Shown here in pieces: positions 1 to 35,330 of a DNA stretch of 35,330 bases. This stretch comes from a virus. Within the stretch, counting starts at the first letter, position 1, and each line of letters starts with the position of its first letter. The translations under genes were made by a program, and so were the position numbers. The notes below the pieces were generated by a model that was not told the DNA's origin, searched no databases, and saw nothing but the letters and a program-made list of their open reading frames with translations. The stretch is from the IMG/VR virus record IMGVR_UViG_3300045988_136456; one strand, written 5' to 3'.

Positions 1-141
1 CGGCGATCCCGATTGCCTACACCGACAATGCGCAGGGAGGCAAGACGGTCACCATCGGCTGAGGAGGTGCGGCATGGCCAACAACAAAGTCCAGCTCAGC
101 GACGGAACAGTCCTGCTTGACCTGACCGGGGACACCGTAAC
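1..141. repeat. Terminal direct repeat: assembly overlap of a circular genome, identical to 35190-35330
   Basis: Read directly. Bases 1-141 match 35190-35330 letter for letter, so unit length is 35189 bp. Bases 1-62 are the 3' end of CDS 34661-35251. Confidence 0.95.
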
Positions 142-5767: not shown

Positions 5768-6799
5768 TCAAAAGCTCTTTTTCATCTTCTCCGCTGCGGC
5801 GGCGATCGCGTCACCGTAGACGTGCGTATAGATGTCCATTGTCGTGGACAGCTTCGCATGACCGAGCAATTTCTGCGCCGTCTTGGGGTCAACTCCCGCC
5901 TCAAACAGCGCGGTCGCATAGCCATGCCGGATCTGATGCAGAGAGACCGTCACGCCGCTGGCGGCGCAGTACGCCTTGTAAAGCTTGCGGAAATCGCCGT
6001 CTGTCAGCAGCGAGCCGTCCGGCTCGGCAAACAGATACCCTTGCGGCAATTTTTTCGGCAGAAGCGCATCCAAGGCGGGCAGGAGCGGGACCTCTCGCAC
6101 ACCGGCGGCTGTCTTTGGCTCCTTGATCTTCGCGCCGTGGTCGTAATAGACGGACCGGCGGATATGCACGCGCATGGCTTTGCGGTCAATGTCGGCTCCG
6201 GTCAGGGCCTGCGCCTCGCCCCTGCGGCAGCCGGTGTAGTAGATCAGCGCCGGGAACAAGCCAAAGGGCAAATTCGTGGATGCCTTGATCTTGGCGATCT
6301 GGTCTTTGTCGGGGGCCTCGCGCCGCGTCTGCGGAAGATTGCGCGGCACGCGGACGGCCTGCGCCGGATTGTAATTTGTTTTTCCTTGCAGCTCCGCCCA
6401 GCGCAGGACCTGGCGGATGACCTGCAGCTGCATGGCGACGGTCTTCCTCGCCCGCGCGGCGGCAAAGTCCCGAATAAATGCGTCGATCTCTTTGGCGGTG
6501 ATACTGCCGACCTGCCGCGCCCCAAATTCCTCCACGGCTCGGCGCAACGCCGGCTTATAGTTTTTCACCGAGTTCGGCTCGAGCTTCAGCTCGGCTTCAT
6601 CCCACCACTGCTCTGCGATCCTCGAGAAGGTCGTCTCCGCGTCGATCTCCGCTTGTAGCTGGGCTCGGTCAAACGCCTTGACCTTTTCCCATACTTCCTT
6701 GTCGGTTTTCCCGCGGAAGGCCTTGCGCTTGCCGTTGATGCGGAGGATCGTCTCATGCAGACCGTCCGGTCGGATGTAATAGCTGGGATATTTTGGCAT
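5768..6799 (-). CDS. int: Tyrosine recombinase / phage integrase
   Basis: Contains YYTGCRRGEAQAL (Arg I) and LHQIRHGYATALFEAGVDPKTAQKLLGHAKLSTTMDIYTHV (HxxR...H...Y). Confidence 0.9.
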   Translation of the reverse strand: MPKYPSYYIRPDGLHETILRINGKRKAFRGKTDKEVWEKVKAFDRAQLQAEIDAETTFSRIAEQWWDEAELKLEPNSVKNYKPALRRAVEEFGARQVGSITAKEIDAFIRDFAAARARKTVAMQLQVIRQVLRWAELQGKTNYNPAQAVRVPRNLPQTRREAPDKDQIAKIKASTNLPFGLFPALIYYTGCRRGEAQALTGADIDRKAMRVHIRRSVYYDHGAKIKEPKTAAGVREVPLLPALDALLPKKLPQGYLFAEPDGSLLTDGDFRKLYKAYCAASGVTVSLHQIRHGYATALFEAGVDPKTAQKLLGHAKLSTTMDIYTHVYGDAIAAAAEKMKKSF

Positions 6800-13301: not shown

Positions 13302-14087
13302 ATGAAAACCATTGCGATCATGAACAACAAAGGTGGCGTCGGCAAGACCGTCACCGCCATCAACCTCGCAGAGATCCTCGTGCATGACTACGGAAAGCGC
13401 GTGCTGCTGATCGACTGCGACGGACAATGCAATCTGACGAACTTTTACAAGCCGGGCTACGACCCCGACTCGGACAGCAACGTTGCAACGCTTTTGCTTG
13501 GCATGGCGGAGCCGCTCTGGAGCGATTCCGCCATCACGCTCTCGCCGTCGATGCTGCTTGTCCCCGCATCCTCGGAGCTCTATGACATCGACTGCAACGC
13601 GCTGCACGAGGGTATGCGGCGCACACGTGTTCTGTATGATTTCGTCCGCGCGGCAGAGGATGACAACGGCGCGGACTACTGCATCCTCGATTGTCCCCCT
13701 GGGTACACCGTGGCGAGCGTCAACGCGCTGTTTGCCTGTGACGAGGTGATTGTCCCCGCGAAGATCGACGGTTTTGTCTTTGACGGTCTCGAGAGCGTGC
13801 GCGCACAGATCCGCAGCCTGCGTCGTGCGCGTCCCGACGTGCGGATTGCCGGTGTGCTCGTCACAATGCGGAACAGCAGCGAGGTCGTGCGCGAGGGCGA
13901 GACCTTGCTACGCCAACGCGGGATCCTGGTCTTTGAGCAGGTCATTCGGCGCACGGATAAGGTCGTGGAGACCACGTTTGAGAAAAAACCGTTGATCGAT
14001 TACTGCCCGCGGAGCGTGGCGACGCAGGACTACCGCCGCTGGGTGGCGGAATATCTCGGAGAGGAGCTTGGTCATGGCGAAGTTTGA
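13302..14087 (+). CDS. parA: ParA-type partition ATPase
   Basis: Deviant Walker A: MKTIAIMNNKGGVGKTVTAINLA. Confidence 0.85.
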   Translation: MKTIAIMNNKGGVGKTVTAINLAEILVHDYGKRVLLIDCDGQCNLTNFYKPGYDPDSDSNVATLLLGMAEPLWSDSAITLSPSMLLVPASSELYDIDCNALHEGMRRTRVLYDFVRAAEDDNGADYCILDCPPGYTVASVNALFACDEVIVPAKIDGFVFDGLESVRAQIRSLRRARPDVRIAGVLVTMRNSSEVVREGETLLRQRGILVFEQVIRRTDKVVETTFEKKPLIDYCPRSVATQDYRRWVAEYLGEELGHGEV

Positions 14088-15525
14088 CATCACGAAATTT
14101 GCCGAGGCTCTGCCCGACCGCGCGGATTTGCCCGATTCGGGTATGACGCGCGAGATCCCGGTGGACGACATCCTCGACAATCCGCGCAACTTCTACCCGC
14201 GGCCCGACAATCAGGCGCTCGCCGCGCTAATGGAGTCCATCCAAGCCAACGGCCTGCTTGAGCCTCCGACCGTCGTGCCGGACACGGACGGCAAGTACCG
14301 CCTGATCTCCGGACACAGCCGCATGGCGGCGCTGCGGCTGCTTGCGGCGAATCGGGACGAGGCCGTCGCGAAGCAGTTCTCCACCGTGCTCTGCCGAGTG
14401 CTGCCCGCGATGACGGAGGAGCAGGAGCTGTGCGCGGTGATCGAGGCGAACCGTCAGCGCGTGAAGTCCAACGCGCTGCTTGCGGAGGAGGCCGAGAAGC
14501 TCAAAGAGACTTATATTCGGCGCAAGAAGGCCGGCGAGGAGTTCCCGGTCGGCCTGCGTGAGTGGATCGCCAGGGAGATGCAGATCAACGCGACGAAGGT
14601 CGGCAACCTGCAGGTCATTAAAAAGGGCCTCAAGGTGCCGGGCATCATCAGGAGGTGGGAGGCGGGCGAACTTCCCGAAGCCGCCGCACTTGAGATCGCC
14701 CGCATGGACGACGAGACGCAGTACAGGCTGCTGGATTGGGTGATCGACAATCACCGCACATGGACGATCAACAATGTGCGCGAGTTTTCGACCTGCTGGG
14801 CCTGCTGCAAGCATAAATGCCCGGATACCGGCAGCTTCTGTCCGAACGCCGCGCGGATGTACGCTGACCGTTATCGCTACGGCGAGTGGCGCTGCACCGG
14901 CTGCTGCCGCGAATGTCGCAGTCGTGACACCTGCTCTTCTGCGTGTCGCTTTGTTGTCGCAGAGCGGCCGCCGAAGGAGCCGGATTCTGCCGTGCCCCGA
15001 AATCCGGCAGCCGACGACCCTCGGCTCAAGAACATGACGCCGAAATTCTGCGAGCGCGTTAAAGCTCTGCGCGAAGCGACCGGCTTGACGCGCAAGGAGT
15101 TTGCCGAGAGCATCGGCGAGTACCCCGGCACCTACAGCGCGTGGGAGAACAACAGCCTTGCCGGTGCGGGCTCGCTGCCCAAGCTGGCGCTGACGCTCGG
15201 CACGACGATGGACTACCTCTGCGGTCTGACGGACGATCCTTTACCGCCGCGAGACGAGTGGAGGGTTGGCGTGGATCTTGCCGCGCCGGAATGGCTGCCG
15301 CTCGACGCGGCGCACTGGCCGACCGAGGGCGCGCTGGTCGTGCTCAGTTATGAGACCGGCCTCGGCGGCAGCAGCTACCTCGTGGCCCGCTGCGCCGGCG
15401 GCGCGGATGATGAGTACCCGTTTATCTCGACAGACGCGGGGACCACGGTCGACGACATCGTCGAGTGCCGCTGCGACCGCTGGATGCCGCTTGCCGAGTG
15501 CGGCCGCGGCAAGGAGGACGCATGA
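14074..15525 (+). CDS. parB: ParB/Srx-domain protein fused to a Cys-rich segment, an XRE HTH and a C-terminal domain
   Basis: Contains ILDNPRNFYPR...ESIQANGLLEPPTVV...YRLISGHSRMAALRLL, the Cys cluster CWACCKHKCPDTGSFCPN...CTGCCRECRSRDTCSSAC, and the HTH GLTRKEFAESIGEYPGTYSAWEN. Confidence 0.75.
   Translation: MAKFDITKFAEALPDRADLPDSGMTREIPVDDILDNPRNFYPRPDNQALAALMESIQANGLLEPPTVVPDTDGKYRLISGHSRMAALRLLAANRDEAVAKQFSTVLCRVLPAMTEEQELCAVIEANRQRVKSNALLAEEAEKLKETYIRRKKAGEEFPVGLREWIAREMQINATKVGNLQVIKKGLKVPGIIRRWEAGELPEAAALEIARMDDETQYRLLDWVIDNHRTWTINNVREFSTCWACCKHKCPDTGSFCPNAARMYADRYRYGEWRCTGCCRECRSRDTCSSACRFVVAERPPKEPDSAVPRNPAADDPRLKNMTPKFCERVKALREATGLTRKEFAESIGEYPGTYSAWENNSLAGAGSLPKLALTLGTTMDYLCGLTDDPLPPRDEWRVGVDLAAPEWLPLDAAHWPTEGALVVLSYETGLGGSSYLVARCAGGADDEYPFISTDAGTTVDDIVECRCDRWMPLAECGRGKEDA
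14130..14141. repeat. Partial palindrome family copy (GCCCGATTCGGG) inside the parB 5' end
   Basis: 12-bp core only. Confidence 0.6.
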
Positions 15526-15869
15526 AGAGGTCAGGACTGCTGCAAAAGCGCGACGCGCTGACGCAGGAGCGGCTCGACGTGATGCAGCGGACGATGAAGC
15601 AGTACATGCTCGACACGCTCCTCATCACGATGCACGAGGATTTCGGCTGGGGCTATGAGCGCCTCAGCCGCCTCGCGGAAAAGTGGGGCGAGACCTATGA
15701 CCGCTATTTCCCCGCGCTCCAAAGCACCGACGAATCCGATGTCTGGCAGGAGCGCCTCGACCGCGCGACGCTCGCTTTTCTCGGCGACCACACATTTTAC
15801 CCCTTCCCGAAGCGCTATCCGGAGATCAAACGGCTCGGCTATGAGCCGAAGAGGAGGAGCCATGCTTGA
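15522..15869 (+). CDS. Hypothetical protein
   Basis: ATGA overlap with the parB stop. AAGGAGG RBS. Confidence 0.6.
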   Translation: MKRSGLLQKRDALTQERLDVMQRTMKQYMLDTLLITMHEDFGWGYERLSRLAEKWGETYDRYFPALQSTDESDVWQERLDRATLAFLGDHTFYPFPKRYPEIKRLGYEPKRRSHA

Positions 15870-16050
15870 CTATGATGACCTCGCCCCGCGGTATGTGGGC
15901 ATCTGCCTAATTTGCGGCGAGCAGGTGTTGAAAAAGAAGGCGGTCTCGATCATGTACCGCGCACCCTACGCGTCGGTACGGACGCTTGGGTACTTTTGCC
16001 GTGGTTGCTGGATCAAATTTTTGGAGGGAAACGGCATTTCAGAGCCGTGA
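15862..16050 (+). CDS. Small Cys-containing hypothetical protein
   Basis: GAGGAGGAG RBS. Contains CLICGE...CRGC. Confidence 0.55.
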   Translation: MLDYDDLAPRYVGICLICGEQVLKKKAVSIMYRAPYASVRTLGYFCRGCWIKFLEGNGISEP

Positions 16051-16062
16051 AAGGAGGAGCAC

Positions 16063-16527
16063 ATGAAAAACAATGAGATCGTCAGGGCGCTGCGGTGCAT
16101 TTCCACCGCAGGCGGAGAGAATGCCTGCGAGCATTGCCCGTACTGGAAGGAAGAGGAAGTCCCGGAAGAAGAACGGCCCATATACGGAGCCGACACGATG
16201 CATTCATGCGATGTCGACCGCGTCGGACTGGATGGCGCGGATTTGATCGAGCGCCTGACCGCGCGCTGCGCGCGGTACGCCGAGGAGATCGCCGTGGCGC
16301 AGGAGCGGACACGGTGGATCCCCGTGACGGAGCGCCTGCCGGAGGCGACCGACGGAGGCTATGTGCTTGCTTGCGTAACATGGAAGGACGCTCACATCGA
16401 CTATCAGAACGCCGTGGTGATGGCGTTTGTCTCGGAAAAGGGGCTTGTAGACGTAGAAATGGACTGTGTGCTTGATGGCGTCACGCACTGGATGCCGCTG
16501 CCCGAAGGGCCGGAGGAGGAAGGGTAA
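16063..16527 (+). CDS. DUF551-like domain protein
   Basis: C-terminus RWIPVTERLPEATDGGYVLACV...GVTHWMPLPEGP. Confidence 0.65.
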   Translation: MKNNEIVRALRCISTAGGENACEHCPYWKEEEVPEEERPIYGADTMHSCDVDRVGLDGADLIERLTARCARYAEEIAVAQERTRWIPVTERLPEATDGGYVLACVTWKDAHIDYQNAVVMAFVSEKGLVDVEMDCVLDGVTHWMPLPEGPEEEG

Positions 16528-17016
16528 ATGAAAAGACTGACAACTAATTGCCCGGATAACAACCTTGATGTCGCCCTGAATCTGTTTTACATCAAAGACT
16601 TCGAGACGTGGGTGCGGGGCGGAGGTGATGGCCCGGACTACCCGGACATCCGGCTCTACGATTTTATCCGCAAAGCCGCAAAGATTTTACTGCCGGATTT
16701 AGACTTTCCAATGGATGATGACGGCGTAGACTATGCGATGGGTGAGCTTTTGCTGGACGGTCCTGATGAGCCAACAGGATTGCTTGCCCTGCTATATACC
16801 GCAGCATGGTCATACGCAGAACTGCGTGGCAGGCTCATGCAATACGAGGACACGGGCAAGACACCGGTGGAAGTGTCCACACTGGTTAAAGATTGGAACG
16901 ACCTTTGCACTATCGTCAGAGAGTGCGGTGGCATTAGCCGAGTAAGGGTACTGGCCGAGGCCGACAAGGACGGTCGGCTGGTGGTGTCGCCGGAACCGCC
17001 GAAGAAGGTGGAGTGA
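16528..17016 (+). CDS. Hypothetical protein
   Basis: The ATG directly follows the previous stop, with a GGAGGAGG upstream. Confidence 0.6.
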   Translation: MKRLTTNCPDNNLDVALNLFYIKDFETWVRGGGDGPDYPDIRLYDFIRKAAKILLPDLDFPMDDDGVDYAMGELLLDGPDEPTGLLALLYTAAWSYAELRGRLMQYEDTGKTPVEVSTLVKDWNDLCTIVRECGGISRVRVLAEADKDGRLVVSPEPPKKVE

Positions 17017-17165
17017 TGCTTGAGCTCAGATTAGATGACCCTCATTTCGCGGAAAACGCTCTGGCGGCAATGAGCCTGAAAAAGATGGGATTCCGGGACG
17101 ACGAGCTGGAGCTGCTCTACCAAAAGCAGCTTGAAGAGGATGCAAAGGAGGCAGCTAATGACTGA
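17016..17165 (+). CDS. Small hypothetical protein (49 aa), not in the ORF track
   Basis: TGATG overlap with the previous gene. Translates to MLELRLDDPHFAENALAAMSLKKMGFRDDELELLYQKQLEEDAKEAAND and fills an otherwise empty gap. Confidence 0.4.
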   Translation: MLELRLDDPHFAENALAAMSLKKMGFRDDELELLYQKQLEEDAKEAAND

Positions 17166-17445
17166 CATGGAACGCAGAACCTTCTGCGCGGCGCTCAGTC
17201 GCTACGGCGCGCAGGCGCAGATCACGATGGTCTTTGAGGAGATGGCCGAACTGCAGGATGTGCTGTGTAAGTTCCTGCGCGGGCGCGTGGACGGCGACGC
17301 GCTCGCCAACATCGCCGAGGAGCTCGCCGACGTCGGGATCATGCTCGACCAGATGGCGATCGAGTTTGAGGTCGAGGACGCGGTGTCAGAGCAGCGGGCA
17401 CACAAGGTCCGGCGGCTGCGGGAAAGGATTAAGAACGATGAATGA
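17158..17445 (+). CDS. MazG-like nucleotide pyrophosphohydrolase
   Basis: EEMAELQDVLCKFLRGR...IAEELADVGIMLDQM. AAGGAGG RBS. Confidence 0.6.
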   Translation: MTDMERRTFCAALSRYGAQAQITMVFEEMAELQDVLCKFLRGRVDGDALANIAEELADVGIMLDQMAIEFEVEDAVSEQRAHKVRRLRERIKNDE

Positions 17446-17764
17446 ATACATCGACCGTGATGCGCTGCGTCAAGCGGTGCTGGAAAGCCAGCACGACAAC
17501 CCTCATCCACGTGGTATGGCTCATATTGCACATGACTGTGAGCACGCACACTTTGTAGCGATGATCGCCCGCTTCCCAGCCGCTGACGTTGCGCCGGTGG
17601 TGCATGGGTGCTTCGAGCCGTGTTTTGACGAGAACGGTAATTGGCGGCAGGGCTTTGCGAAATGCTCGAATTGCGGCAAGGAATACTACGCACAGGTAAT
17701 CAACCATTTTGGTTACTGCCCCAACTGCGGGGCGAAAATGGACGGAGGTGCGGACAATGGCTGA
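17438..17764 (+). CDS. Zn-ribbon hypothetical protein, tandem paralog 1
   Basis: MNEYIDRDAL...ADVAPVVHG...CSNCG...CPNCGAKMDGGADNG. Confidence 0.6.
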   Translation: MNEYIDRDALRQAVLESQHDNPHPRGMAHIAHDCEHAHFVAMIARFPAADVAPVVHGCFEPCFDENGNWRQGFAKCSNCGKEYYAQVINHFGYCPNCGAKMDGGADNG

Positions 17765-18053
17765 ATACATTGAGCGGGAGGCGTTGCTGGACAGCATTTG
17801 CTATGAAACGTGCGGGATAGCGTTTTGCGGCGCTACGAACTGTGCTTTTATGGCAAAGGTTTGCTCTGCGCCCGTTGCCGATGTTGCCCCGGTGGTGCGG
17901 TGTAAGAACTGCAAGCACAGAGGGTGGGTACAGGAGCCGTGCCACGGTAAGAGCGTTGATTATTGCAGGATTTGGGACTGCACTTTGCGGAATCTGGAAG
18001 CGACGTTTTGCAGCTACGGCGAACAAAAGGATGGAGGTGCCAGCAATGCCTGA
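17757..18053 (+). CDS. Cys-rich hypothetical protein, tandem paralog 2
   Basis: MAEYIEREAL...ADVAPVVRCKNCKH...QKDGGASNA. The gene-junction sequence is also duplicated. Confidence 0.6.
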   Translation: MAEYIEREALLDSICYETCGIAFCGATNCAFMAKVCSAPVADVAPVVRCKNCKHRGWVQEPCHGKSVDYCRIWDCTLRNLEATFCSYGEQKDGGASNA

Positions 18054-18300
18054 ATTCCGTAGACTAACCTACAAGACGCCGGACGGGGCGTGGGGCATCA
18101 AGGGCGTGAGTCTGCTCACCTGCCCGGCGCGGCTCTACGGCGCGGCCGCAAAGCTGTGCGACATGGAGACGCTGTGCGAGGAGGCTGCCGCGGCGGGAGA
18201 CGGCGAGCGGATGCTCGACGCGCTGCAGGAGTTGGTGGACAAGGGCCTCGGCGGACGCTTCATCGACCTGCGCAGGGTGCTGGAAGGGGTGGAGCTATGA
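18046..18300 (+). CDS. Hypothetical protein
   Basis: GGAGGTG RBS. 84 aa. Confidence 0.55.
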   Translation: MPEFRRLTYKTPDGAWGIKGVSLLTCPARLYGAAAKLCDMETLCEEAAAAGDGERMLDALQELVDKGLGGRFIDLRRVLEGVEL

Positions 18301-18980
18301 CGTGGGGCAGGGTGTTGATCGTCAAATTGCCGGAGCTGCATGCCGACGTCAAACAGCTCGAGGCGTTCCGCGCCTATGTGTGCGACGCGCTCGGCGCGGG
18401 CACGCTGGTGCTGCCGCTTGGCACGACCTACGCGGTCGAGGAGTTCCCCGCGCTCGGCGCGGTGGAGGTGGTCGCGGGGGACGCCGTGCCTGTCGTGATC
18501 GGCGGGCCGAGGCCAACGCCTGCGGGCGGAGGCGGCGGGCTGGTCGTTGGCGGGCGCGTCGTCCGCTCGGTGCCCGATTCGGGCACGGAAAAGGAACCTT
18601 CCAAGAAGGAGCTGCCCGACATCCCCGCGGCGGAGGGTGTGAGCCGACCGGAGCCGAAGCCGGTCGAGCCGCCGGAGAGACCGCCCGAGGAGAAGGCCGA
18701 CGTGCCGAAGCCGACGGAGATCAAGCTGCCGTTGGCGGTCGGTCAGGCAACGCCGCGGTTTGCCGGGAAGGCGTCGAGCGAGAAAGCGGACATCTTTGCC
18801 CGGTTGAACCGGTACTGGTCGGAAAAGGGGCCGGGCTCGATGATCAAGCTCTCCGAGGCCTGCGGGCTGGATGCCTCGAAGCTCTACCTGATGCAGCGCA
18901 ACGACGGGAAGTTTGACATTGAGCACTGGCGCGCGGTCAACGCGGGTCTGGACAAGCTCGGATATGGAGGGACGAAATGA
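18297..18980 (+). CDS. Hypothetical protein with a Pro/Gly-rich linker
   Basis: ATGA overlap with the previous gene. The linker contains a family palindrome, translated as VPDSGT. Confidence 0.55.
   Translation: MTWGRVLIVKLPELHADVKQLEAFRAYVCDALGAGTLVLPLGTTYAVEEFPALGAVEVVAGDAVPVVIGGPRPTPAGGGGGLVVGGRVVRSVPDSGTEKEPSKKELPDIPAAEGVSRPEPKPVEPPERPPEEKADVPKPTEIKLPLAVGQATPRFAGKASSEKADIFARLNRYWSEKGPGSMIKLSEACGLDASKLYLMQRNDGKFDIEHWRAVNAGLDKLGYGGTK
18570..18586. repeat. Palindrome family copy (GTGCCCGATTCGGGCAC) inside a CDS
   Basis: 17-bp perfect palindrome. Confidence 0.9.
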
Positions 18981-19201
18981 CAAGGAAACGGATGATCAAG
19001 CTGCTGATGGGGTTGGGCGCATCTCGTAATGATGCGGTGTGGGCAGCGAACCAGTGTGACGGCAAGCTTTCGCACAGCCATTGTTTGGGGTTCTTGCTTG
19101 ACGAATACATCCGGGATCGCCGACGTCAGCAAAGGCGATACATCATCGAGGGCGACATGACCGGCGCGGTCGCCGGAATGGTCGGAAGCGTGTATGGCTG
19201 A
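18977..19201 (+). CDS. Hypothetical protein
   Basis: ATGA overlap with the previous gene. 74 aa. Confidence 0.5.
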   Translation: MTRKRMIKLLMGLGASRNDAVWAANQCDGKLSHSHCLGFLLDEYIRDRRRQQRRYIIEGDMTGAVAGMVGSVYG

Positions 19202-19913
19202 GCGGTTCTACTGCGTGCGCCAGCGCGCGGGGAATCTTGTCAAGGAGTACCGCGGGACGATGCCGCCGCGCTATGCGCCCTCCGACACCGACGAGGACCG
19301 GCGCGCCAAGGCCGACCTCAAGGCGCAGCGGCGCACGGTGCTCAACCGCGACTCCACCGACCGGCTCGAGCTGATGATCGCGCTCATGGGCAAGTACGCC
19401 ACGCACTACATTCTGGAGTTCGACGACGAGCATCTGCCGGAGCGCTTTGCCGACGTGCGCAAGGCGCTGCGGGCCTTCCTGCGGCGCGTGGAGCGCTATC
19501 GAGGCAAGGGCGGTTTTGACTACATCCCGGCCATCGAGGGCCTGCACGGTGCGCACAGGTATCACATCCACCTCGTCGCGGACTACCGGCAGCTCTCGCC
19601 GGCGGAGGTGCGGTTCCTGTGGCAGTGCGGCGAGGTGACGGATTGGCCGGTATTTAAGCGGCACGGCAAGGCGCTCGGCTACCGCTACCTCGCGCGCTAT
19701 CTCACCAAGGAGCGCAGCGACGGAATCATCATCCCGGTTGGGCGGCATCCGTGGAGCTGCTCGCGCAGTCTGCGCGCAAAGCTGCCGCCGCCGGAGGTGT
19801 GGCTCGACGAGAGCGATGCGATCACGATACCGTTCGACGCGATGCTCCCACGGGTGCGGACCGGCGGCAGTCAATTTGGCAGCTACCGGGTGGCGAGCTG
19901 GATCGAGGCGTAA
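19194..19913 (+). CDS. HUH-type rolling-circle Rep-like protein
   Basis: Motif-like segments are THYILEFDDEH, HRYHIHLVADY (HUH) and GYRYLARYLTKE (Tyr motif). Confidence 0.55.
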   Translation: MAERFYCVRQRAGNLVKEYRGTMPPRYAPSDTDEDRRAKADLKAQRRTVLNRDSTDRLELMIALMGKYATHYILEFDDEHLPERFADVRKALRAFLRRVERYRGKGGFDYIPAIEGLHGAHRYHIHLVADYRQLSPAEVRFLWQCGEVTDWPVFKRHGKALGYRYLARYLTKERSDGIIIPVGRHPWSCSRSLRAKLPPPEVWLDESDAITIPFDAMLPRVRTGGSQFGSYRVASWIEA

Positions 19914-19988
19914 GGAATCGCGTGCGCGCGTGCGCGCGACATTACTTGTAACCTATTGGCTTTTTAGTGACAGAATGAAAGGATGGCG

Positions 19989-20195
19989 ATGAACGACTTG
20001 AAAACGATCGCGAAAGGTGCTAAACTTAGCATCAAGGACGGACACATCGTGTGTCCCGTCTGCCGGATGAAAACCAGGCAGATCATCCGGCCGGAGACCG
20101 AGGCGAAAAACCTGCAGGTGTTCTGCGCGCAGTGTAAGTCGCAGATGCTCGTGAATATCAAAACTGGCCAGTGCTCTTTTGTTAGCCCGTGCTGA
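19989..20195 (+). CDS. Cysteine-rich KTR-like small protein
   Basis: CPVCRMKTRQIIRPETEAKNLQVFCAQCKSQMLVNI. Confidence 0.6.
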   Translation: MNDLKTIAKGAKLSIKDGHIVCPVCRMKTRQIIRPETEAKNLQVFCAQCKSQMLVNIKTGQCSFVSPC

Positions 20196-20243
20196 TCGAG
20201 TCCAGACGTTGGACGTGATCGGTGCGGGTGTTTTCTTTTGCCC

Positions 20244-20534
20244 ATGTTTGATTATTCACGAAAGAACAAGCGCTGGCAGCGGCTGCGCGTGCGGGCGCTC
20301 CGGCGGGACGGATATCGGTGCCGAGAAGCGGCCCGGTACGGTCGGCGCGAGGCGGCGCAGGTGGTGCATCACATCTGGCCTGCCGAGGACTACCCGGAGT
20401 ATGCGTACTGTCTCTGGAACCTCGTGAGCCTGTCGAGTGCGGCGCACGATGCGATGCACGATCGCGCGACCAGAAAGCTCACGGCGCTCGGTGAGCGCTG
20501 GCGAAATAGAGTCCCCCCACCTCCTGGCGGGTGA
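20244..20534 (+). CDS. HNH endonuclease, packaging-associated type
   Basis: WQRLRVRALRRDGYRCREA...VVHHIWP...NLVSLSSAAHDAMHDR, upstream of the terminase genes. Confidence 0.8.
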   Translation: MFDYSRKNKRWQRLRVRALRRDGYRCREAARYGRREAAQVVHHIWPAEDYPEYAYCLWNLVSLSSAAHDAMHDRATRKLTALGERWRNRVPPPPGG

Positions 20535-21191
20535 CGGTGGAGTCTCTGCAGCTGGGTGCAGGACTCCGCGCACACGCAGCGGAAAATTTTTCCGGAGAAA
20601 AATGTCGGGAAAAACGCTGGGGTGCGCCCAAAAAACTGCGCGATGGAGACTGCCGGAGCGGCGCGTGATAAGAGCCTGCGCGTATGCGCCCGATAGTTTG
20701 TTTCGCGCGGGCCGCGGACGCGAACCGCGCACGGACCGTGCGGATGCGTTGACGCCAGCCTTCCCCACGATTTGTCCCAGATGCTCCGGTGCAGCCCCCG
20801 GCTCTTGAGCCGGATAGTCTTCACGCTTCTGTCCCCTGCCCCTCGGCACCTCCGAGGGTCGGGGGCTGCACCGGAACGGCGGACGCTGCGTTTTCGCAGC
20901 GGAATGTGGAATATGCTGCACGGATGCAGCGAGAAGCTCCTGCGTGTTCTCCGCTCTTTGACGGGCGGCATGATGTTATTCTCCTACCCCCGCGGCCCTC
21001 GAATCGCGAGGGGCGGGGAATGCGCAGGAGCGCCGCCGGTGGCGGAGAAAGCGACTAAGCATTCGAGGCAGCGGCGCTGTCGCCGCAAGCGGAAACGCCG
21101 CGGGGACGGCCTGCCGCGACGGTGGGCCAGATGCGCAGGAGCTTAATGGCCATCATGCCCGAATCGGGCACGGAAGAAATGGGGTGAGACA
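20535..21191 (+). other. 657-nt ORF-free, GC-rich, hairpin-dense region: candidate large structured RNA and/or cos region
   Basis: The only ORFs here are Arg-rich with atypical codons. At least 8 local stems were read by eye, plus a 14-bp long-range helix (20786-20799 with 20861-20874) that encloses two hairpins. Confidence 0.5.
21155..21171. repeat. Palindrome family copy (ATGCCCGAATCGGGCAC)
   Basis: 15-bp perfect palindrome core, 20 nt upstream of the first late gene. Confidence 0.9.
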
Positions 21192-21587
21192 GTGGACGGG
21201 AACCGGAAAAAGGTCGGCGGGTGTACGCTCGGAAGCTACGCGCTGGACGTGAAGTGTGAGGACTGCTCGCACTGTGGATGGAACCCTGCGGTTGACGCGG
21301 AGCGCAAGCGGAACATCCGGCGCGGAGTGATCCGCGAAAAGGAACGTGTGCGCCTGACGGCGGCGCGAAAGACCGCCGTGCCGGATCGTGCAGGCTGGTA
21401 CAACGCAAAGCGCGCACTGCCCGATCCAGGCGAGCGCGTGATCGTGACCGACGGCGTATTCGTCGGTGAGGCCTATCTCAGCAAGGGCGGCATTTGGCTG
21501 CGCTACGGCATGGAGATGGTCGACCGACGGACCGGCATCTTCCCGCCCGTGGCGTGGATGCCGCTGCCGGTGTTCTTGAAGCCATAA
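21192..21587 (+). CDS. DUF551-like domain protein
   Basis: GTG start. Cys cluster CEDCSHCGW. C-terminus GWYNAKRALPDPGERVIVTD...VAWMPLPVF. Confidence 0.55.
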   Translation: MDGNRKKVGGCTLGSYALDVKCEDCSHCGWNPAVDAERKRNIRRGVIREKERVRLTAARKTAVPDRAGWYNAKRALPDPGERVIVTDGVFVGEAYLSKGGIWLRYGMEMVDRRTGIFPPVAWMPLPVFLKP

Positions 21588-21600
21588 CGGAGGACACGAC

Positions 21601-21969
21601 ATGACCAAGGAACAGATCTATGCCGAGCAGATGCGTGACCTCGGCATCTATGACAAGGCCTTTGAGCCGGAGATCCATACGCTCGCCATCCTGGAGCGGG
21701 AGCACCAGCGGACGATGAAGGAATGGAAGGCCACGGCAGAGGACGGCAGAGCCCCCAGCGCTGCCGACAAGCTCTACACCGTGATCCAGCAGCAGCGCCG
21801 AGACATTCTTGCGCACCGTGAGGCACTGGGACTTACGCCGAAGGCCTTCAAGCGGCTGCGCCCAATGGACAGCGGCGCTGCGGCGGACAGCGAGCCGGTA
21901 GGCGGTGCGAACCGGCAGCTGGCGGGATTGCTGGACCGGCTCATGGAGGGCGCGCATGGCGACGCATGA
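21601..21969 (+). CDS. terS: Terminase small subunit, P27-family-like
   Basis: Position, size and the segment REALGLTPKAFKRL. GGAGGA RBS. Confidence 0.65.
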   Translation: MTKEQIYAEQMRDLGIYDKAFEPEIHTLAILEREHQRTMKEWKATAEDGRAPSAADKLYTVIQQQRRDILAHREALGLTPKAFKRLRPMDSGAAADSEPVGGANRQLAGLLDRLMEGAHGDA

Positions 21970-23749
21970 GTGCATCGTAAACGAGTGGGCAGAGCAGACT
22001 GAGGCAAACGAGCGCGCCTGTGAGGATCTTCGGGCGGCGGCGCGGCGCTACCTCGACGACCGCCGAAGCGGCAAGTGGGAGTTTCGCACGCAGCTTGCCG
22101 AGTTCGTGATCAACGGCATCGAGACACTGTTCTGCCACCAGCAGGGCGAGAGCCTGGACGGCCGGCCGCTGCGCGGCACGCCCTTCCTCCTGCAGCCCTG
22201 GCAGCTCTTTGACATTTACAACGTGTGCGGCTTCTTCCTGCCAGGGACGGAGCTGCGGCGTTACCAGGAGCAGTTTTCCATGCTGGCGCGGAAGAACGGC
22301 AAGACGCCGTTTACGACGGCGAAGATCTGGATGCTCGGCGTCGCTTACAGCCGAAGCTACTCGAAGATCAAGACCGTGGCCGGCAGCGCAAAGCAGAACA
22401 TGGAGGGCTTCGGCTTCCTCGGCTACAACCTGCACCGGCTCGGCCTTACCGTGCGCGAGGACGCGGTGCATGGGCTGCGCGTCCTGGACAGCTCGCTCGG
22501 GCACAGCTACTCCGGCGCAATCTGGGACGGACAGATCAGCTTTGACGCGCTTGCCTATAAGCCAGATATCTTTGATGCCTTCAACGCAAACCTTGTCCAT
22601 CTCGACGAGCTGGAGCTCTACCGGAACGCTGTGCCCTATGGCCGCTTGAAGGACGCGACGAAGGCGTATTCGAATAAGCTCATCGCCGCGACCACGACCG
22701 CAGGCGACGACGGCACCGGCTTCTGCGCACAGCGGCTGGAATACTGCTCCAAGATCGTGCGTGGACAGATCACCGGCGAGGACGCCGACCGCATCTTCGT
22801 GCTCATTGCTCGCGCCGATCCGGACAAGGACACGGGCGAGGTCGACTATCTCAGCCCACTCGCGCAGGAGCAGGCAAACCCGAGCTGGGGCGTGACCATC
22901 CGCCCGAGCGATATGATGGCAAGCGCCCTGCAGGCACAGAACGACCCGCAGATGCGAAAGGAATTTCTTACGCGCTCGCTCAACGTGTTTGTGTCGAGCT
23001 TCAAGGCGTGCTTCGACGTAGCGGATTTCCGGCGCTCGGACGCACACTATCACTGGACGCAGCAAGAACTTGCGCGGCTTGTAACAGCGTGGTACGGCGG
23101 CGCGGACCTCTCCAAGCTGCACGATCTGACGGCTGCCGCCATTGTGGGCGAGATCCCCGCGGCGAAGGCGGCAAACGAGGACTGGACGCCGAGCGAGGAT
23201 GTGCTGGTCATCGTGCCGCACGCCTGGTTCCCGCGCACGGCGGCGGCGGAAAAGGCAGATGTGGATAACATCCCGCTCTTCGGCTGGCAGGACGACGGCT
23301 GGCTTGATATGCCGAACGAGAGCAGCATGGACCCGACCGAGCCGGTGAAGCAGTTTAAGAAGTGGCAGGCCAATGGCTTCCGCATCCGGAAGGTCGGCCA
23401 TGACCGGAAATTTGCGCGGCCCTACTACACGGCGATGAAAAAGGCGGGCTTCACGGTGGTGGATCAGCCGCAGCTCTATCTCGCGAAAAGCGAGGGCTTC
23501 CGCTACATCGAGCACAAGATGAAAATCGGCTGCCTGTACTACTGCGGCGCGGAGCCGTTTGAATACTGCGTCGGAAATATTAGGGCTTGCGAAAAAGTCG
23601 ATGATGCGGTACAATATGAGAAGATCAACGACACCTCCCGCATCGACGTGTTCGACGCGGCGGTGTTTGGGACGATCCGGATGCTCATCGACACTGAAAA
23701 GCGTGCGAATGCGTCGCGCTGGTTTGAGAGCGGTAAACCGAATACCTGA
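21956..23749 (+). CDS. terL: Terminase large subunit
   Basis: 597 aa between terS and the portal gene. Contains LARKNGKTPF (Walker A-like) and VHLDELE (Walker B-like). Confidence 0.85.
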   Translation: MATHECIVNEWAEQTEANERACEDLRAAARRYLDDRRSGKWEFRTQLAEFVINGIETLFCHQQGESLDGRPLRGTPFLLQPWQLFDIYNVCGFFLPGTELRRYQEQFSMLARKNGKTPFTTAKIWMLGVAYSRSYSKIKTVAGSAKQNMEGFGFLGYNLHRLGLTVREDAVHGLRVLDSSLGHSYSGAIWDGQISFDALAYKPDIFDAFNANLVHLDELELYRNAVPYGRLKDATKAYSNKLIAATTTAGDDGTGFCAQRLEYCSKIVRGQITGEDADRIFVLIARADPDKDTGEVDYLSPLAQEQANPSWGVTIRPSDMMASALQAQNDPQMRKEFLTRSLNVFVSSFKACFDVADFRRSDAHYHWTQQELARLVTAWYGGADLSKLHDLTAAAIVGEIPAAKAANEDWTPSEDVLVIVPHAWFPRTAAAEKADVDNIPLFGWQDDGWLDMPNESSMDPTEPVKQFKKWQANGFRIRKVGHDRKFARPYYTAMKKAGFTVVDQPQLYLAKSEGFRYIEHKMKIGCLYYCGAEPFEYCVGNIRACEKVDDAVQYEKINDTSRIDVFDAAVFGTIRMLIDTEKRANASRWFESGKPNT

Positions 23750-23764
23750 CCTGTGGCCATGATG

Positions 23765-23806
23765 CCCCGTGTCCTTCACTGTAAGGACACGGGGCTTTTC
23801 TATTTT
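23765..23806 (+). terminator. Strong intrinsic terminator between terL and the portal gene
   Basis: 12-bp stem CCCCGTGTCCTT / AAGGACACGGGG followed by CTTTTCTATTTT. Confidence 0.7.
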
Positions 23807-23821
23807 CCCGCAAAGGAGCTG

Positions 23822-25003
23822 ATGATGATTTTTGAGAATTTGACGAAGCGCTTCAAGAAACGGTCGGCCTCGATGGTCGGCCTGACGCTCTCCTCGCCCG
23901 GTGTGATCTGTCCAAGCGGCTATACCCGCCTTTCGGACGCGCCGGAGGTCGCCGCAGCGGTCTGGCGCATCAGCGACATGATCGCCTCCATGACCATCCA
24001 CCTGATGGAGAACGCGAAGAACGGCGACGTGCGCGTAAAGGACGAGCTGGCGCGGAAGGTGGACGTCGCGCCGTGGAGCCTCGGTACGCGCCAGACGCTC
24101 ATCGGCTGGATCGTGAGCACGCTGCTCACCGAGGGCAATGCCTTCGTGCTGCCGGTGACGCGGGACGGCCTGCTCACCGATCTGTGGCCGATGCCGACGG
24201 CTTACGCCCAGCGCCGCCCGGACGGCAGCCCCTACGAGATCGTGTGGCAGGGCATGGCCTTCGAGCCGGACGAGGTGCTTCACTTCCGCCTGCGCCCCGA
24301 TGCGCGCTATCCCTGGCAGGGCGTGGGGACGCGCGTGCAGCTCGGCGACATTGTGGACAGCATTGCCCAGACGGCGGCGACGAAGAAGGCATACATGAGC
24401 AGCGAGTACAAGCCGCCGTTGGTGATCGCCGTTAATTCGGACAGCGATTTGAGCGATCCGGATAAGCGCGATGCGTTCACGCAGAGCTTCCTCACGCGGA
24501 AGGACCCGAGCGCTCCGCTCATCATCCCTGCGGATCTGATGAACGTGGTACAGGCAAAGCCGCTGAGCCTGACCGACCTTGCTGTCCGCGACGGCGTGGA
24601 GCTGGACAAGCGGAACGTCGCCGCCATCTTCGGCGTGCCTGGCTTCATGGTTGGCGTGGGCGATTACGACAAGGACGAGTACAACACCTTCGTCTCCTCC
24701 GTCCTGCTGCCGCTGGCGCAGGTCATTGAGCAGGAACTGACGAAGAAGCTGCTGGTGAGCAGCAAGCGCTATTTCAAGTTCAACGCCCGCTCGCTCTACG
24801 CCTACGACCTCAAGGAACTCAGCGAGATCGGCAGCGATCTCTATATCCGCGGGCTGATGACCGGCAACGAGGTGCGCAACTGGATGTCGCTGCCGCCGAA
24901 GGACGGGCTTGACGTGCTGGTGATCCTCGAAAACTTTATTCCTGCCGACCGCATCGGCGACCAGAAAAAACTGAAGGAGGGCAAGAAGAATGCCGAAGAA
25001 TGA
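23822..25003 (+). CDS. Portal protein, HK97-family-like
   Basis: The start was placed after the terminator, at AAAGGAG-CTG-ATG. Gene order and size fit a portal. Confidence 0.8.
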   Translation: MMIFENLTKRFKKRSASMVGLTLSSPGVICPSGYTRLSDAPEVAAAVWRISDMIASMTIHLMENAKNGDVRVKDELARKVDVAPWSLGTRQTLIGWIVSTLLTEGNAFVLPVTRDGLLTDLWPMPTAYAQRRPDGSPYEIVWQGMAFEPDEVLHFRLRPDARYPWQGVGTRVQLGDIVDSIAQTAATKKAYMSSEYKPPLVIAVNSDSDLSDPDKRDAFTQSFLTRKDPSAPLIIPADLMNVVQAKPLSLTDLAVRDGVELDKRNVAAIFGVPGFMVGVGDYDKDEYNTFVSSVLLPLAQVIEQELTKKLLVSSKRYFKFNARSLYAYDLKELSEIGSDLYIRGLMTGNEVRNWMSLPPKDGLDVLVILENFIPADRIGDQKKLKEGKKNAEE

Positions 25004-34668: not shown

Positions 34669-35251
34669 AAATCAGTACAACAGCAAAATCGTACTCTCGA
34701 GCGGCGAAGTCCTCATGGACCTCACTCAGGACACCGTGGTCGCGGACAAGCTCCTCAAGGGCTTTACCGCGCACGGCAAGGACGGCGCGCCCATCACCGG
34801 CTCCTGCGAATTTGACGCGGACACCGGCGACGCCACCGCGGGCGCGGCGGAAATTCTGACCGGCAAGACGGCCTATGTCACCGGCAGCAAGGTCACCGGT
34901 ACCATGCCGAACAACGGGGCCAAGACGCTCAGCATCACGGAAAAGGGTAAGCCGGTCACCATCCCCCAGGGCTACCACGACGGCAGCGGCAAGGCGCAGA
35001 TCGACGCAGCCGAAGAGGCGAAGCTGATCCCCGCCAACATTCGCGAGGGCATCACCGTCCTCGGCGTGCTCGGCACGATGTCCGGCAGCGAGGGCATGAA
35101 GCCGCAGGCCAAGAACGTCACACCCACGTTCGCCTCGCAGGAGGTTCTGCCCGACGAGGAGTACAATTGCCTCAGCTCCGTCACGGTGGCGGCGATCCCG
35201 ATTGCCTACACCGACAATGCGCAGGGAGGCAAGACGGTCACCATCGGCTGA
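34661..35251 (+). CDS. Tail fibre / receptor-binding candidate
   Basis: The N-terminal module is shared with 74-340. Contains ILTGKTAYVTGSKVTGTMPNNG. Confidence 0.6.
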   Translation: MAENQYNSKIVLSSGEVLMDLTQDTVVADKLLKGFTAHGKDGAPITGSCEFDADTGDATAGAAEILTGKTAYVTGSKVTGTMPNNGAKTLSITEKGKPVTIPQGYHDGSGKAQIDAAEEAKLIPANIREGITVLGVLGTMSGSEGMKPQAKNVTPTFASQEVLPDEEYNCLSSVTVAAIPIAYTDNAQGGKTVTIG

Positions 35252-35262
35252 GGAGGTGCGGC

Positions 35263-35330
35263 ATGGCCAACAACAAAGTCCAGCTCAGCGACGGAACAGT
35301 CCTGCTTGACCTGACCGGGGACACCGTAAC
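35263..35330 (+). CDS. Duplicate 5' part of CDS 74-340, within the assembly overlap
   Basis: Lies inside the 141-bp terminal repeat. Confidence 0.9.
   Translation, partial: MANNKVQLSDGTVLLDLTGDTV

Follow-up and report, generated by a model that had tools for sequence, protein, structure and literature searches.

Shuffled, strand-specific hairpin cassettes at the start of the packaging operon in human-gut phages: candidate leader RNAs

In the IMG/VR virus record IMGVR_UViG_3300045988_136456 (35,330 nucleotides [nt]; the whole stretch is called the window here), a gap of 657 nt at 20535–21191 separates an HNH endonuclease gene from the packaging genes. This gap is true non-coding DNA, and it consists of two layers: a type-specific 5′ part of ~250 nt without strand bias, followed by a variable string of hairpin cassettes. 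The cassettes have strand-specific conserved structure, are modular, do not depend on terminase type, and lie at the start of the packaging operon. The reading that we favor, with about even confidence, is that they are a structured + strand leader RNA (or inter-cistronic spacer) of the packaging/late operon and exert cis-acting control of late mRNA. Cassettes A, B, D, and E are a new structured family; they are absent from Rfam 15, and a limited literature search found no paper describing them. One further cassette of the same system, C, is already in Rfam. The parts of the gap are as follows.

20535–20660, no strand preference: W5a, first portion of the 5′ part, with hairpins H1 and H2 and an A/T island; specific to this HNH/terminase type
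20539–20567: hairpin H1, with the invariant loop AGCUGG
20568–20627: hairpin H2, with an A-U to G·U to G-C series among relatives
20581–20593: A/T island GGAAAATTTTTCC, in W5a
20661–20782: W5b, second portion of the 5′ part, a weakly structured spacer (z −1.0 on +, +1.0 on −)
20728–20742: palindrome CGCACGG-A-CCGTGCG, in W5b
20785–20875, +: cassette D, a long hairpin of ~95 nt with a helix of up to 23 bp and a C/U-rich apical domain of ~50 nt (z −6.4)
20884–20930, +: cassette E, hairpins CGCUGCG-UUUU-CGCAGCG (20884–20901) and GCUGCA-CGGA-UGCAGC (20915–20930)
20936–21031, +: cassette A, a long hairpin of ~96 nt with a 19-bp helix, GCUCCUGCGUGUUCUCCGC / GCGGGGAAUGCGCAGGAGC, and a tandem UG/GU wobble
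21032–21142, +: cassette B, an optional 111-nt insert with hairpins CCGCC-GGU-GGCGG and GCGGCG-CUGU-CGCCGC
21156–21170, +: small hairpin UGCCCG-AAU-CGGGCA, directly before the ribosome-binding site
21181–21188, +: ribosome-binding site GGGGUGAG, ahead of GTG 21192

The long hairpins are conserved on the + strand

The strongest structural evidence comes from cassettes A and D. A covariance model built from D only (R1) scored window D at 89.9 bits on the + strand and 39.9 on the − strand. The same model gave window A 39.2 bits on + and 15.7 on −, and A copies overall 35–50 bits. Aligned together, the 34 distinct A sequences and the 45 distinct D sequences, the latter drawn from more than 110 contigs, are clearly homologous, which makes A a diverged paralogue of D. 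The joint alignment contains a common 23-bp helix, and 8 of its 23 pairs show double compensatory changes. Its stem cells comprise 1415 Watson-Crick and 373 G·U pairs, against 14 A·C and 13 other combinations. Because G·U outnumbers A·C so heavily, the helix works on the + strand only. RNAalifold concurs: −44.8 kcal/mol on +, against −11.2 for the reverse complement. When D is taken by itself, 98.4% of the stem cells are paired, with 164 G·U against 7 A·C. The same helix position carries a tandem 5′-UG-3′/3′-GU-5′ wobble in A and in the D of one phage group (F-type, below); such tandems are favorable in RNA and destabilizing in DNA. The apical unpaired sequences are also conserved between the two paralogues. 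With 23 bp in the consensus and 19–24 bp in individual folds, the helix is as long as RNase III-type enzymes call for (~20 bp or more). The earlier note on this DNA had proposed aligning homologous intergenic regions as a check. Such alignments do contain compensatory and wobble changes, and these work only on the + strand, as expected of a transcript, or of a single DNA strand, with + polarity.

The upper end of the D helix has a competitor, the local hairpin CCCUCGG-CACCU-CCGAGGG, which shows a G-C to A-U double change of its own (CCCUCA...UGAGGG). Two conformations are thus possible: CGAGGG either extends the helix by pairing with CUCUUG or pairs locally with CCCUCG. The multi-stem junction that the earlier note saw within a 14-bp helix competes with the extended 23-bp helix, which is both the minimum-energy and the consensus fold. 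The apical domain of A holds the hairpin CCCUCG-AAUCG-CGAGGG and a CCUCC-containing loop.

The preference for the + strand extends to B and C. Consensus folding of B yields −41.3 on + and −26.5 on −, with 70 G·U against 7 A·C cells; its fold z is only −1.6. The direct repeat ATGCGCAGGAGC flanks B (21020–21031 and 21131–21142), which fits gain and loss of this cassette by recombination. For E the consensus values are −23.9 on + and −19.7 on −. Relatives carry one to three copies of E with the same stem, CGCUGCG/CGCAGCG, and varying loops (GAAG, GAAA, GGAA, AAAA, UUUU, CGGA; the window and the leaders of relatives L136, L147, and L148 are among those read). Several E loops show GGA, reminiscent of CsrA-type binding sites. 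Neither the 5′ parts (F, the F-type counterpart, and W5a) nor the last small hairpin share the strand preference: W5a has fold z −3.7 on + and −4.1 on −, and consensus energies of −40.9 and −38.8. W5b is 84–96% conserved in window-type relatives and partly kept in the relative L082, where its palindrome is not kept. The small hairpin at 21156–21170 is conserved in L082 beside the ribosome-binding site and ATG there, and it occurs elsewhere in the leaders of L140 and L329. It was ruled out as a terminator, since no U-run follows it.

The gap is non-coding and densely folded

The earlier note called the gap free of open reading frames (ORFs). Literally it is not, as mechanical ORFs of 124, 123, 221, and 193 amino acids (aa) cross it, but none of these is a gene. 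Their codon-position G+C is flat (e.g., 0.63/0.64/0.74, against ~0.65/0.45/0.82 in the flanking genes), they match no Pfam or PHROG family, and close relatives have frame-breaking indels of 1 and 2 nt inside them (CCCCCGCGGCCC / CCCCGCGGCCC / CCCCGCGCCC). No conserved coding frame therefore runs through the homologues. The alignment of relatives and codon-position G+C rule out coding readings of both the 124-aa ORF and a 35-aa ORF in cassette B (GTG 21040). In the alignment row of the relative L081, the latter has no start codon and meets an early TGA.

Folded as RNA, the + strand of the 657 nt reaches −341.4 kcal/mol (shuffles −292.9 ± 6.9, z −7.0) and the − strand −314.9 kcal/mol (z −5.4). 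An independent repeat scan returned 16 inverted-repeat pairs. Every hairpin that the earlier note had read by eye is present within 1 nt of where it had been placed, including the 14-bp perfect helix 20786–20799/20861–20874 and CGCTGCG-TTTT-CGCAGCG at 20884–20901. The A/T island at 20581–20593 is likewise confirmed. The motif GCAGCGGAA does recur, its second copy standing at 20895 and not at 20896. The idea of one large structured RNA survives in part: structure is strong and conserved, but there is no single integrated fold, since cassettes are present, absent, duplicated, or reordered among relatives. The suggested kinship with ROOL, GOLLD, or any other Rfam family did not hold. The whole window has no Rfam match at gathering score, and at E<10 the interval 20300–21400 yields only miRNA-type chance matches of ≤22 bits and no match to a CRISPR-DR model. 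A blastn search of GenBank phages found no match, tRNA/tmRNA and tandem-repeat scans returned nothing, and a consensus terminator scan found no + strand terminator in 20535–21191.

Cassettes are shuffled at one locus

Relatives were gathered by TerL-based and pattern-based searches, and their loci were annotated with module queries. The nearest are 95–99% identical to the window in this region. L082 is 72–80% identical and has no counterpart of 20760–20928 and 21045–21150. Many other gut phage contigs share a core, 20930–21142, at ~92% identity, and in these the 91-nt hairpin of 20785–20875 (~80%) stands downstream of the core, not upstream. Altogether, A/D cassettes occur in more than 110 contigs of human-gut phages. 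Their combination and order vary, but they always stand where the packaging operon begins, and every member has at least one A/D-type hairpin. The 5′ part comes in three kinds: W5a/W5b in window-type phages, F, and a third kind in L140-like phages. The following architectures were read.

F-type phages: F-D, F-C-D, F-A-C-D, F-A-B-D, F-A-B-C-D
L140-like phages: A-D
L082: E-A
window: D-E-A-B

Metagenome pattern matches display the same architectural variety; 68 of 72 were true D copies, nearly all in assemblies labeled gut metagenomes. The 65 of these 68 that were kept for context analysis all occupy the same locus in the same orientation. At ~100 loci, D ends 9–12 nt before the Shine-Dalgarno sequence of the first packaging-operon gene. 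Run with filters off, the D model matched only 20783–20877 and 20936–21031 in the window genome, and it matched nothing in 100 TerL relatives (44–66% identity) or in 100 further phage loci. Dispersed repeats of the MITE (miniature inverted-repeat transposable element), REPIN, or BOX kind are contradicted by this restriction to one locus and one orientation and by absence from the 200 other phage loci.

Many contigs end near cassette borders, at differing positions. We attribute these ends to breaks of the assembly graph where cassettes are shared, not to a cos end, and dropped them as a cos locator because they scatter over many positions near the borders. The D model also gives 31 bits, on both strands, to a near strand-symmetric palindrome of 97 nt (76% G+C) that separates TerL from the next gene in L317 (9798–9894); this palindrome is probably an unrelated long hairpin.

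The 5′ part, not the cassettes, follows the terminase

Three packaging lineages carry cassettes: the window type, the A-D type, and the F type. Relative to the window, the A-D type is 48% identical in TerL, 70% in HNH, and 36% in TerS. The F type is ~22% identical in TerL, has other HNH and TerS families, and often begins its operon with a ParB-methyltransferase gene. Across these TerL lineages (22–48% identity, other TerS/HNH families), A and B remain ~84–97% and D ~76–81% identical; A is 84–91% identical where the packaging genes are unrelated. Only the 5′ part (W5, F, or L140-type) changes with HNH/terminase type. Because the cassettes overall stay ~78–92% identical across three terminase lineages, they are not terminase recognition sites; since the 5′ parts co-vary with terminase and the cassettes do not, any cos/TerS site probably lies in the 5′ part.

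The suggestion of an elaborate cos site thus holds for position, the gap lying between HNH and terS, and fails for the hairpin cassettes. By analogy with HK97, a cos with its TerS site, if there is one, would probably lie in the 5′ part (20535–20782), with W5a as the candidate. The HK97 TerS site is 15 bp long, contains an A-tract, and lies ~15 bp from the cut (PMC11331095). L082 and the F-type phages, although their 5′ parts are otherwise unrelated, have a recurring island of the form GARAA(A)TTTTTCC there. A late promoter is perhaps also located in W5a.

The gap can be much shorter. Relatives with the layout Rep-KTR-HNH-terminase have gaps of only about 105–250 nt, and three phages with a Rep-KTR-HNH layout (L316, L317, and L087) are without A/D cassettes. 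In L316, an uncalled HNH gene (~5840–6232) fills most of an apparent 695-nt gap after KTR, and the true non-coding length there is ~250 nt.

Cassette C is the Rfam motif DUF3800-VIII

Cassette C of the relatives is Rfam RF03075, DUF3800-VIII (in L137, 3634–3701, 47.6 bits; gathering score 40.2), which belongs to a set of eleven motifs without a known function that Weinberg et al. 2017 described (PMC5737381). The window has no cassette C, and nothing in it reaches the 40.2-bit threshold of this model. A degenerate pattern located DUF3800-VIII in many other phages, with model scores of 40.7–69.2 bits. At L334 (11339–11406, −) and L319 (3466–3532, −) it stands 10–15 nt 5′ of the ribosome-binding site of a terS of family phrog_1889, and neither locus has a detectable relative of the window Rep, KTR, or either HNH. 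At L329 (3568–3634, +) it precedes a ParB-like first packaging gene. A phrog_1889 terS lies within 400 nt downstream of 25 of 102 pattern matches, which were not individually verified as DUF3800-VIII. The occurrence of DUF3800-VIII before terS in unrelated phages means that a structured cassette ahead of the first packaging gene is recurrent and independent of HNH and Rep.

Pfam scans of the ORFs in 15655–18980 and a crude motif search in the window plus six relatives, neither of them systematic, revealed no DUF3800 gene nearby. A sigma-70-like TTGACG-16-AATACT inside C of L137 is probably coincidental, the Rfam consensus having UUAUGU there, and the scan did not bear out a promoter seen by eye 5′ of DUF3800-VIII in L334 and L319.

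Discussion

Conserved structured elements in phage operon leaders are of a known general kind, and our proposal places the cassettes among them. The 5′ part would hold the DNA-level sites, that is, cos with the TerS site and perhaps the late promoter. One transcript would carry both the cassettes and the packaging genes, and the cassettes would fold in this + strand RNA into a structured 5′ leader; the favored strand is indeed the coding strand of both flanking genes. The core unit would be the A/D-type hairpin, ~95 nt with a G·U-rich helix of ~23 bp and a conserved C/U-rich apical domain. Its long helices may serve as elements for double-strand-specific (RNase III-type) processing and for stabilization. 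They would define and protect a 5′ end just before the Shine-Dalgarno sequence of the first packaging gene and shield the long untranslated stretch.

Several observations weigh against this proposal. It assumes transcription across the region, and a consensus promoter scan found no + strand promoter in 20535–21191. We infer that the folded strand is RNA rather than single-stranded DNA, and likewise infer the RNase III or stability role of the long helices. Folding with DNA parameters also favors the + strand (z −3.1 against −1.6 for D), so energy models cannot separate the two, and Weinberg et al. 2017 noted that RNA and single-stranded-DNA structures are indistinguishable bioinformatically (PMC5737381). 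Sequence diversity is shallow, with few clades at 76–99% identity, which is why D alone exceeded its shuffle control just modestly (3/500), and the double changes are mostly between paralogues A and D. Finally, wherever enough upstream sequence was available, Rep accompanied the cassettes at 63 of 63 loci and KTR at 62 of 63, whereas cassette-free TerL relatives have Rep in 1 of 123 cases and KTR in 3 of 123. This co-occurrence with an HUH Rep suits a role in single-stranded DNA.

Indeed, the main rival holds that the hairpins (A/D, B, C) fold in the + strand displaced during Rep-started rolling-circle replication and initiate lagging-strand synthesis in the manner of a single-strand origin (sso) or of the Ff phages. 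We regard this as unlikely, though it has much in its favor. Besides the co-occurrence, the upstream gene is a bona fide HUH Rep (motifs HIHLV and YLARYLTK, phrog_3584, PF23343 in homologues), the strand-specific hairpins lie on the same strand as rep, and DNA-parameter folds agree. Elements of the sso kind depend on orientation, behave as cassettes, can be exchanged among replicons, do not follow Rep type, and sometimes come in two kinds; these traits match the constancy of the cassettes where Rep is 38% or 95–98% identical, a constancy that rules out a Rep-specific double-strand origin. However, L316, L317, and L087 have the Rep-KTR-HNH layout with gaps of 105–250 nt and no A/D cassettes, the phage has a DnaD-like initiator and a DnaB helicase as well, and cassette C stands directly 5′ of terS in phages with no detectable nearby relative of the window Rep. 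The cassettes always adjoin the Shine-Dalgarno sequence of the next gene. Moreover, ~20% of stem pairs would be G·T, including the conserved tandem, and such pairs are costly in DNA. The ssoA type is marked by loop motifs such as CS-6 (TAGCGT) and RSB; the D apical loop reads only AUAGYC or AUGGCC, no convincing match to these motifs. Somewhat less probable again are functionless or selfish palindromic cassettes or recombination linkers (BOX-, BIME-, or MITE-like, or mosaic-junction sequences) kept by recombination or hitch-hiking. The gap is an exact mosaic junction: the left module, from p296 to Rep, is up to 98% identical where HNH and packaging genes have been replaced. Cassettes are individually dispensable and shuffled, short direct repeats mark module boundaries (ATGCGCAGGAGC twice, and CCAGATGC..GG.GC), and assemblies break at varied cassette borders as if several architectures coexisted per sample. 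Yet the 373:14 ratio of G·U to A·C and the compensatory changes show that selection acts on one folded strand and not solely on duplex repeats, the paralogues agree in their unpaired apical sequences, and dispersed copies are lacking, with one locus, one orientation, and none in 200 other phage loci.

The other explanations are harder to credit. The hairpins might act in trans in immunity, A/D with B, C, and E being cut from the leader as decoys for RNA-sensing defenses or as CRISPR-repeat mimics, with an arms race driving the shuffling; we consider this improbable, as we do its variant in which expanded-loop type I-E repeat mimics might trap the repeat-processing enzyme. If true, it would explain why cassette content differs among co-occurring gut phages despite near-fixed cassette sequences. 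Cassette content is hypervariable, as such a role suggests, and A reads GUGUUCCCCGC...GCGGGGAAU (elsewhere GUGUUC(C/U)CCGC...GCGGGGAAU; window A, L137 3410–3508), with some D variants GUAGUCCCCGG...CCGGGGAC. These ends resemble, over 11+7 nt, the repeat GTGTTCCCCGCGCCAGCGGGGATAAACCG, which we take to be type I-E, with its tetraloop replaced by ~55 nt. The repeat itself comes from CRISPR-analysis papers on Salmonella, E. coli, and Klebsiella. There are precedents for both versions: in staphylococcal phages a structured terS-terL RNA is sensed by the cyclase of CBASS (cyclic oligonucleotide-based antiphage signaling system; PMC10686824), and RNA anti-CRISPRs mimic repeats (PMC10651486). However, the resemblance is post hoc and extends over no more than 5 nt and a G+C-rich stem of 7 bp, no CRISPR-DR model matches even at E<10, and neither a terminator nor a promoter of its own marks a separate RNA gene. 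It is very improbable that the whole 657 nt is an elaborate double-stranded cos, with cosN and multiple sites for terminase, HNH, or host factors. The HNH-TerS interval is the canonical cos position, an A/T island stands in G+C-rich DNA, and the ATGCGCAGGAGC motif occurs twice in direct orientation with two inverted near-copies (16 matches in the window against 7.4 expected). But A, B, and D are common to phages with TerL 22–48% identical and unrelated TerS and HNH, each cassette is dispensable, and mismatches are almost solely G·T on one strand, unexpected for a duplex site. Relatives also manage with 105–250 nt, and HK97 with a 15-bp TerS site. Finally, we give almost no credence to one large ornate RNA of the ROOL/GOLLD kind or to a missed protein-coding gene. 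The fold z of −7.0 and the mechanical ORFs of 124–221 aa speak for them; the lack of an Rfam match, the independent and reordered modules, the frame-breaking indels, the flat codon-position G+C, and the lack of a family match speak against them.

It is useful to compare the cassettes with known systems. The closest is DUF3800-VIII (RF03075, PMC5737381), which is cassette C of the homologous region in relatives and a candidate structured RNA before the first packaging gene; the window differs in having no C, and none of the cassettes that it does have (A, B, D, and E) matches an Rfam model. HNH-dependent cos sites of the HK97 kind (PMC11331095; Kala et al. 2014 cited therein) share the HNH-TerS location, and the 5′ part of the window likewise has an A/T tract and co-varies with terminase. 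HK97, however, needs a 15-bp TerS site, whereas the hairpin cassettes are dispensable and do not co-vary with terminase. The sso elements and the Ff intergenic region (review PMC5714925) are likewise strand-specific, cassette-like, hairpin-dense non-coding DNA beside an HUH Rep. The window, in contrast, is a 35-kb tailed phage with DnaD and DnaB, relatives with the same Rep family are without cassettes, and no clear CS-6 or RSB was seen. The phage RNA sensed by CBASS (cabRNA, PMC10686824) is also a structured RNA from the terminase region with double-stranded segments; it lies inside the terS-terL coding sequence, is defined by binding to the cyclase, and has no sequence similarity to the cassettes.

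Two further comparisons bear on mRNA fate. Hairpins for RNase III processing and stabilization are known from phage polycistronic mRNAs, among them the T7 R sites and the lambda N-leader and sib. Like the cassettes, these are paralogous long hairpins of about two helical turns between operon genes beside a ribosome-binding site. The window helices differ in running uninterrupted over 19–23 bp and in their large, conserved apical domain, and they are unrelated in sequence to those hairpins. BOX, BIME/REP, and Correia repeats are also modular short palindromic units that are co-transcribed and can alter mRNA fate. The cassettes, in contrast, keep to a single locus and one orientation, whereas numerous dispersed copies in either orientation are typical of such repeats.

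If the cassettes are leader RNAs, they form a new, abundant structured family at the start of the packaging operon in phages of human-gut Oscillospiraceae type, with >110 occurrences in public gut assemblies. DUF3800-VIII, which has had no functional hypothesis since 2017, gains a genomic home as an interchangeable cassette of the same leader, standing before terS elsewhere. RNA-level control of late and packaging genes in uncultured phages thereby becomes a testable question. More broadly, long "cos-like" gaps should not be taken for cos by default, and metagenome assemblies break at this locus because cassettes are shared.

Genome and gene neighborhood

The first 141 nt of the window (1–141) are duplicated exactly at 35190–35330, so the assembly is circular or circularly closed, with a genome of 35,189 bp and an arbitrary start. 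The genes around the gap are these.

19194–19913, +: HUH rolling-circle Rep, 239 aa; motifs HIHLV and YLARYLTK; phrog_3584 (E 2.8e-26); PF23343 in homologues
19983–20195, +: Cys-rich KTR zinc ribbon (PF14205), upstream of HNH
20238–20534, +: HNH endonuclease (phrog_119, E 1.8e-19)
21192–21587, +: 131-aa ORF, first gene after the leader; GTG start at 21192; codon-position G+C 0.65/0.50/0.80
21601–21969, +: TerS (Terminase_4 / phrog_361)
21905–23749, +: TerL, packaging gene
23753–25003, +: portal, downstream of TerL

The 131-aa ORF has no Pfam, PHROG, or NCBIfam match and keeps 68% amino-acid identity in L082. By eye, its C-terminal half has a W...P...G flavor like that of DUF551, at a level that is not significant; a DUF551 domain protein (PF04448, E 3.7e-12) is encoded at 16063–16527. 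PDB sequence searches with Rep and KTR returned nothing informative. Rep (PF23343), KTR (PF14205), and HNH constitute a conserved triad directly 5′ of the packaging genes (window 19194–20534, L316 4767–6232, L317 5001–6467), which also occurs in a wider family of phages encoding DnaB, ParA, and ParB. An HUH nickase beside cos and terminase might start sigma replication.

Upstream of Rep, the window encodes a DnaD-like initiator, DnaB helicase, ParA, and ParB. The ParA/ParB-like genes adjoin DnaB at 13302–15525, and maintenance as a plasmid-prophage is possible, although some window-type copies lie in contigs of 50–100 kb. As to hosts, L081 and most other TerL relatives come from metagenome-assembled genomes of Oscillospiraceae or other Clostridia. 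L082 (contig CAVDWO010000026.1; TerL 91% identical) is binned as Alistipes onderdonkii, probably a binning error.

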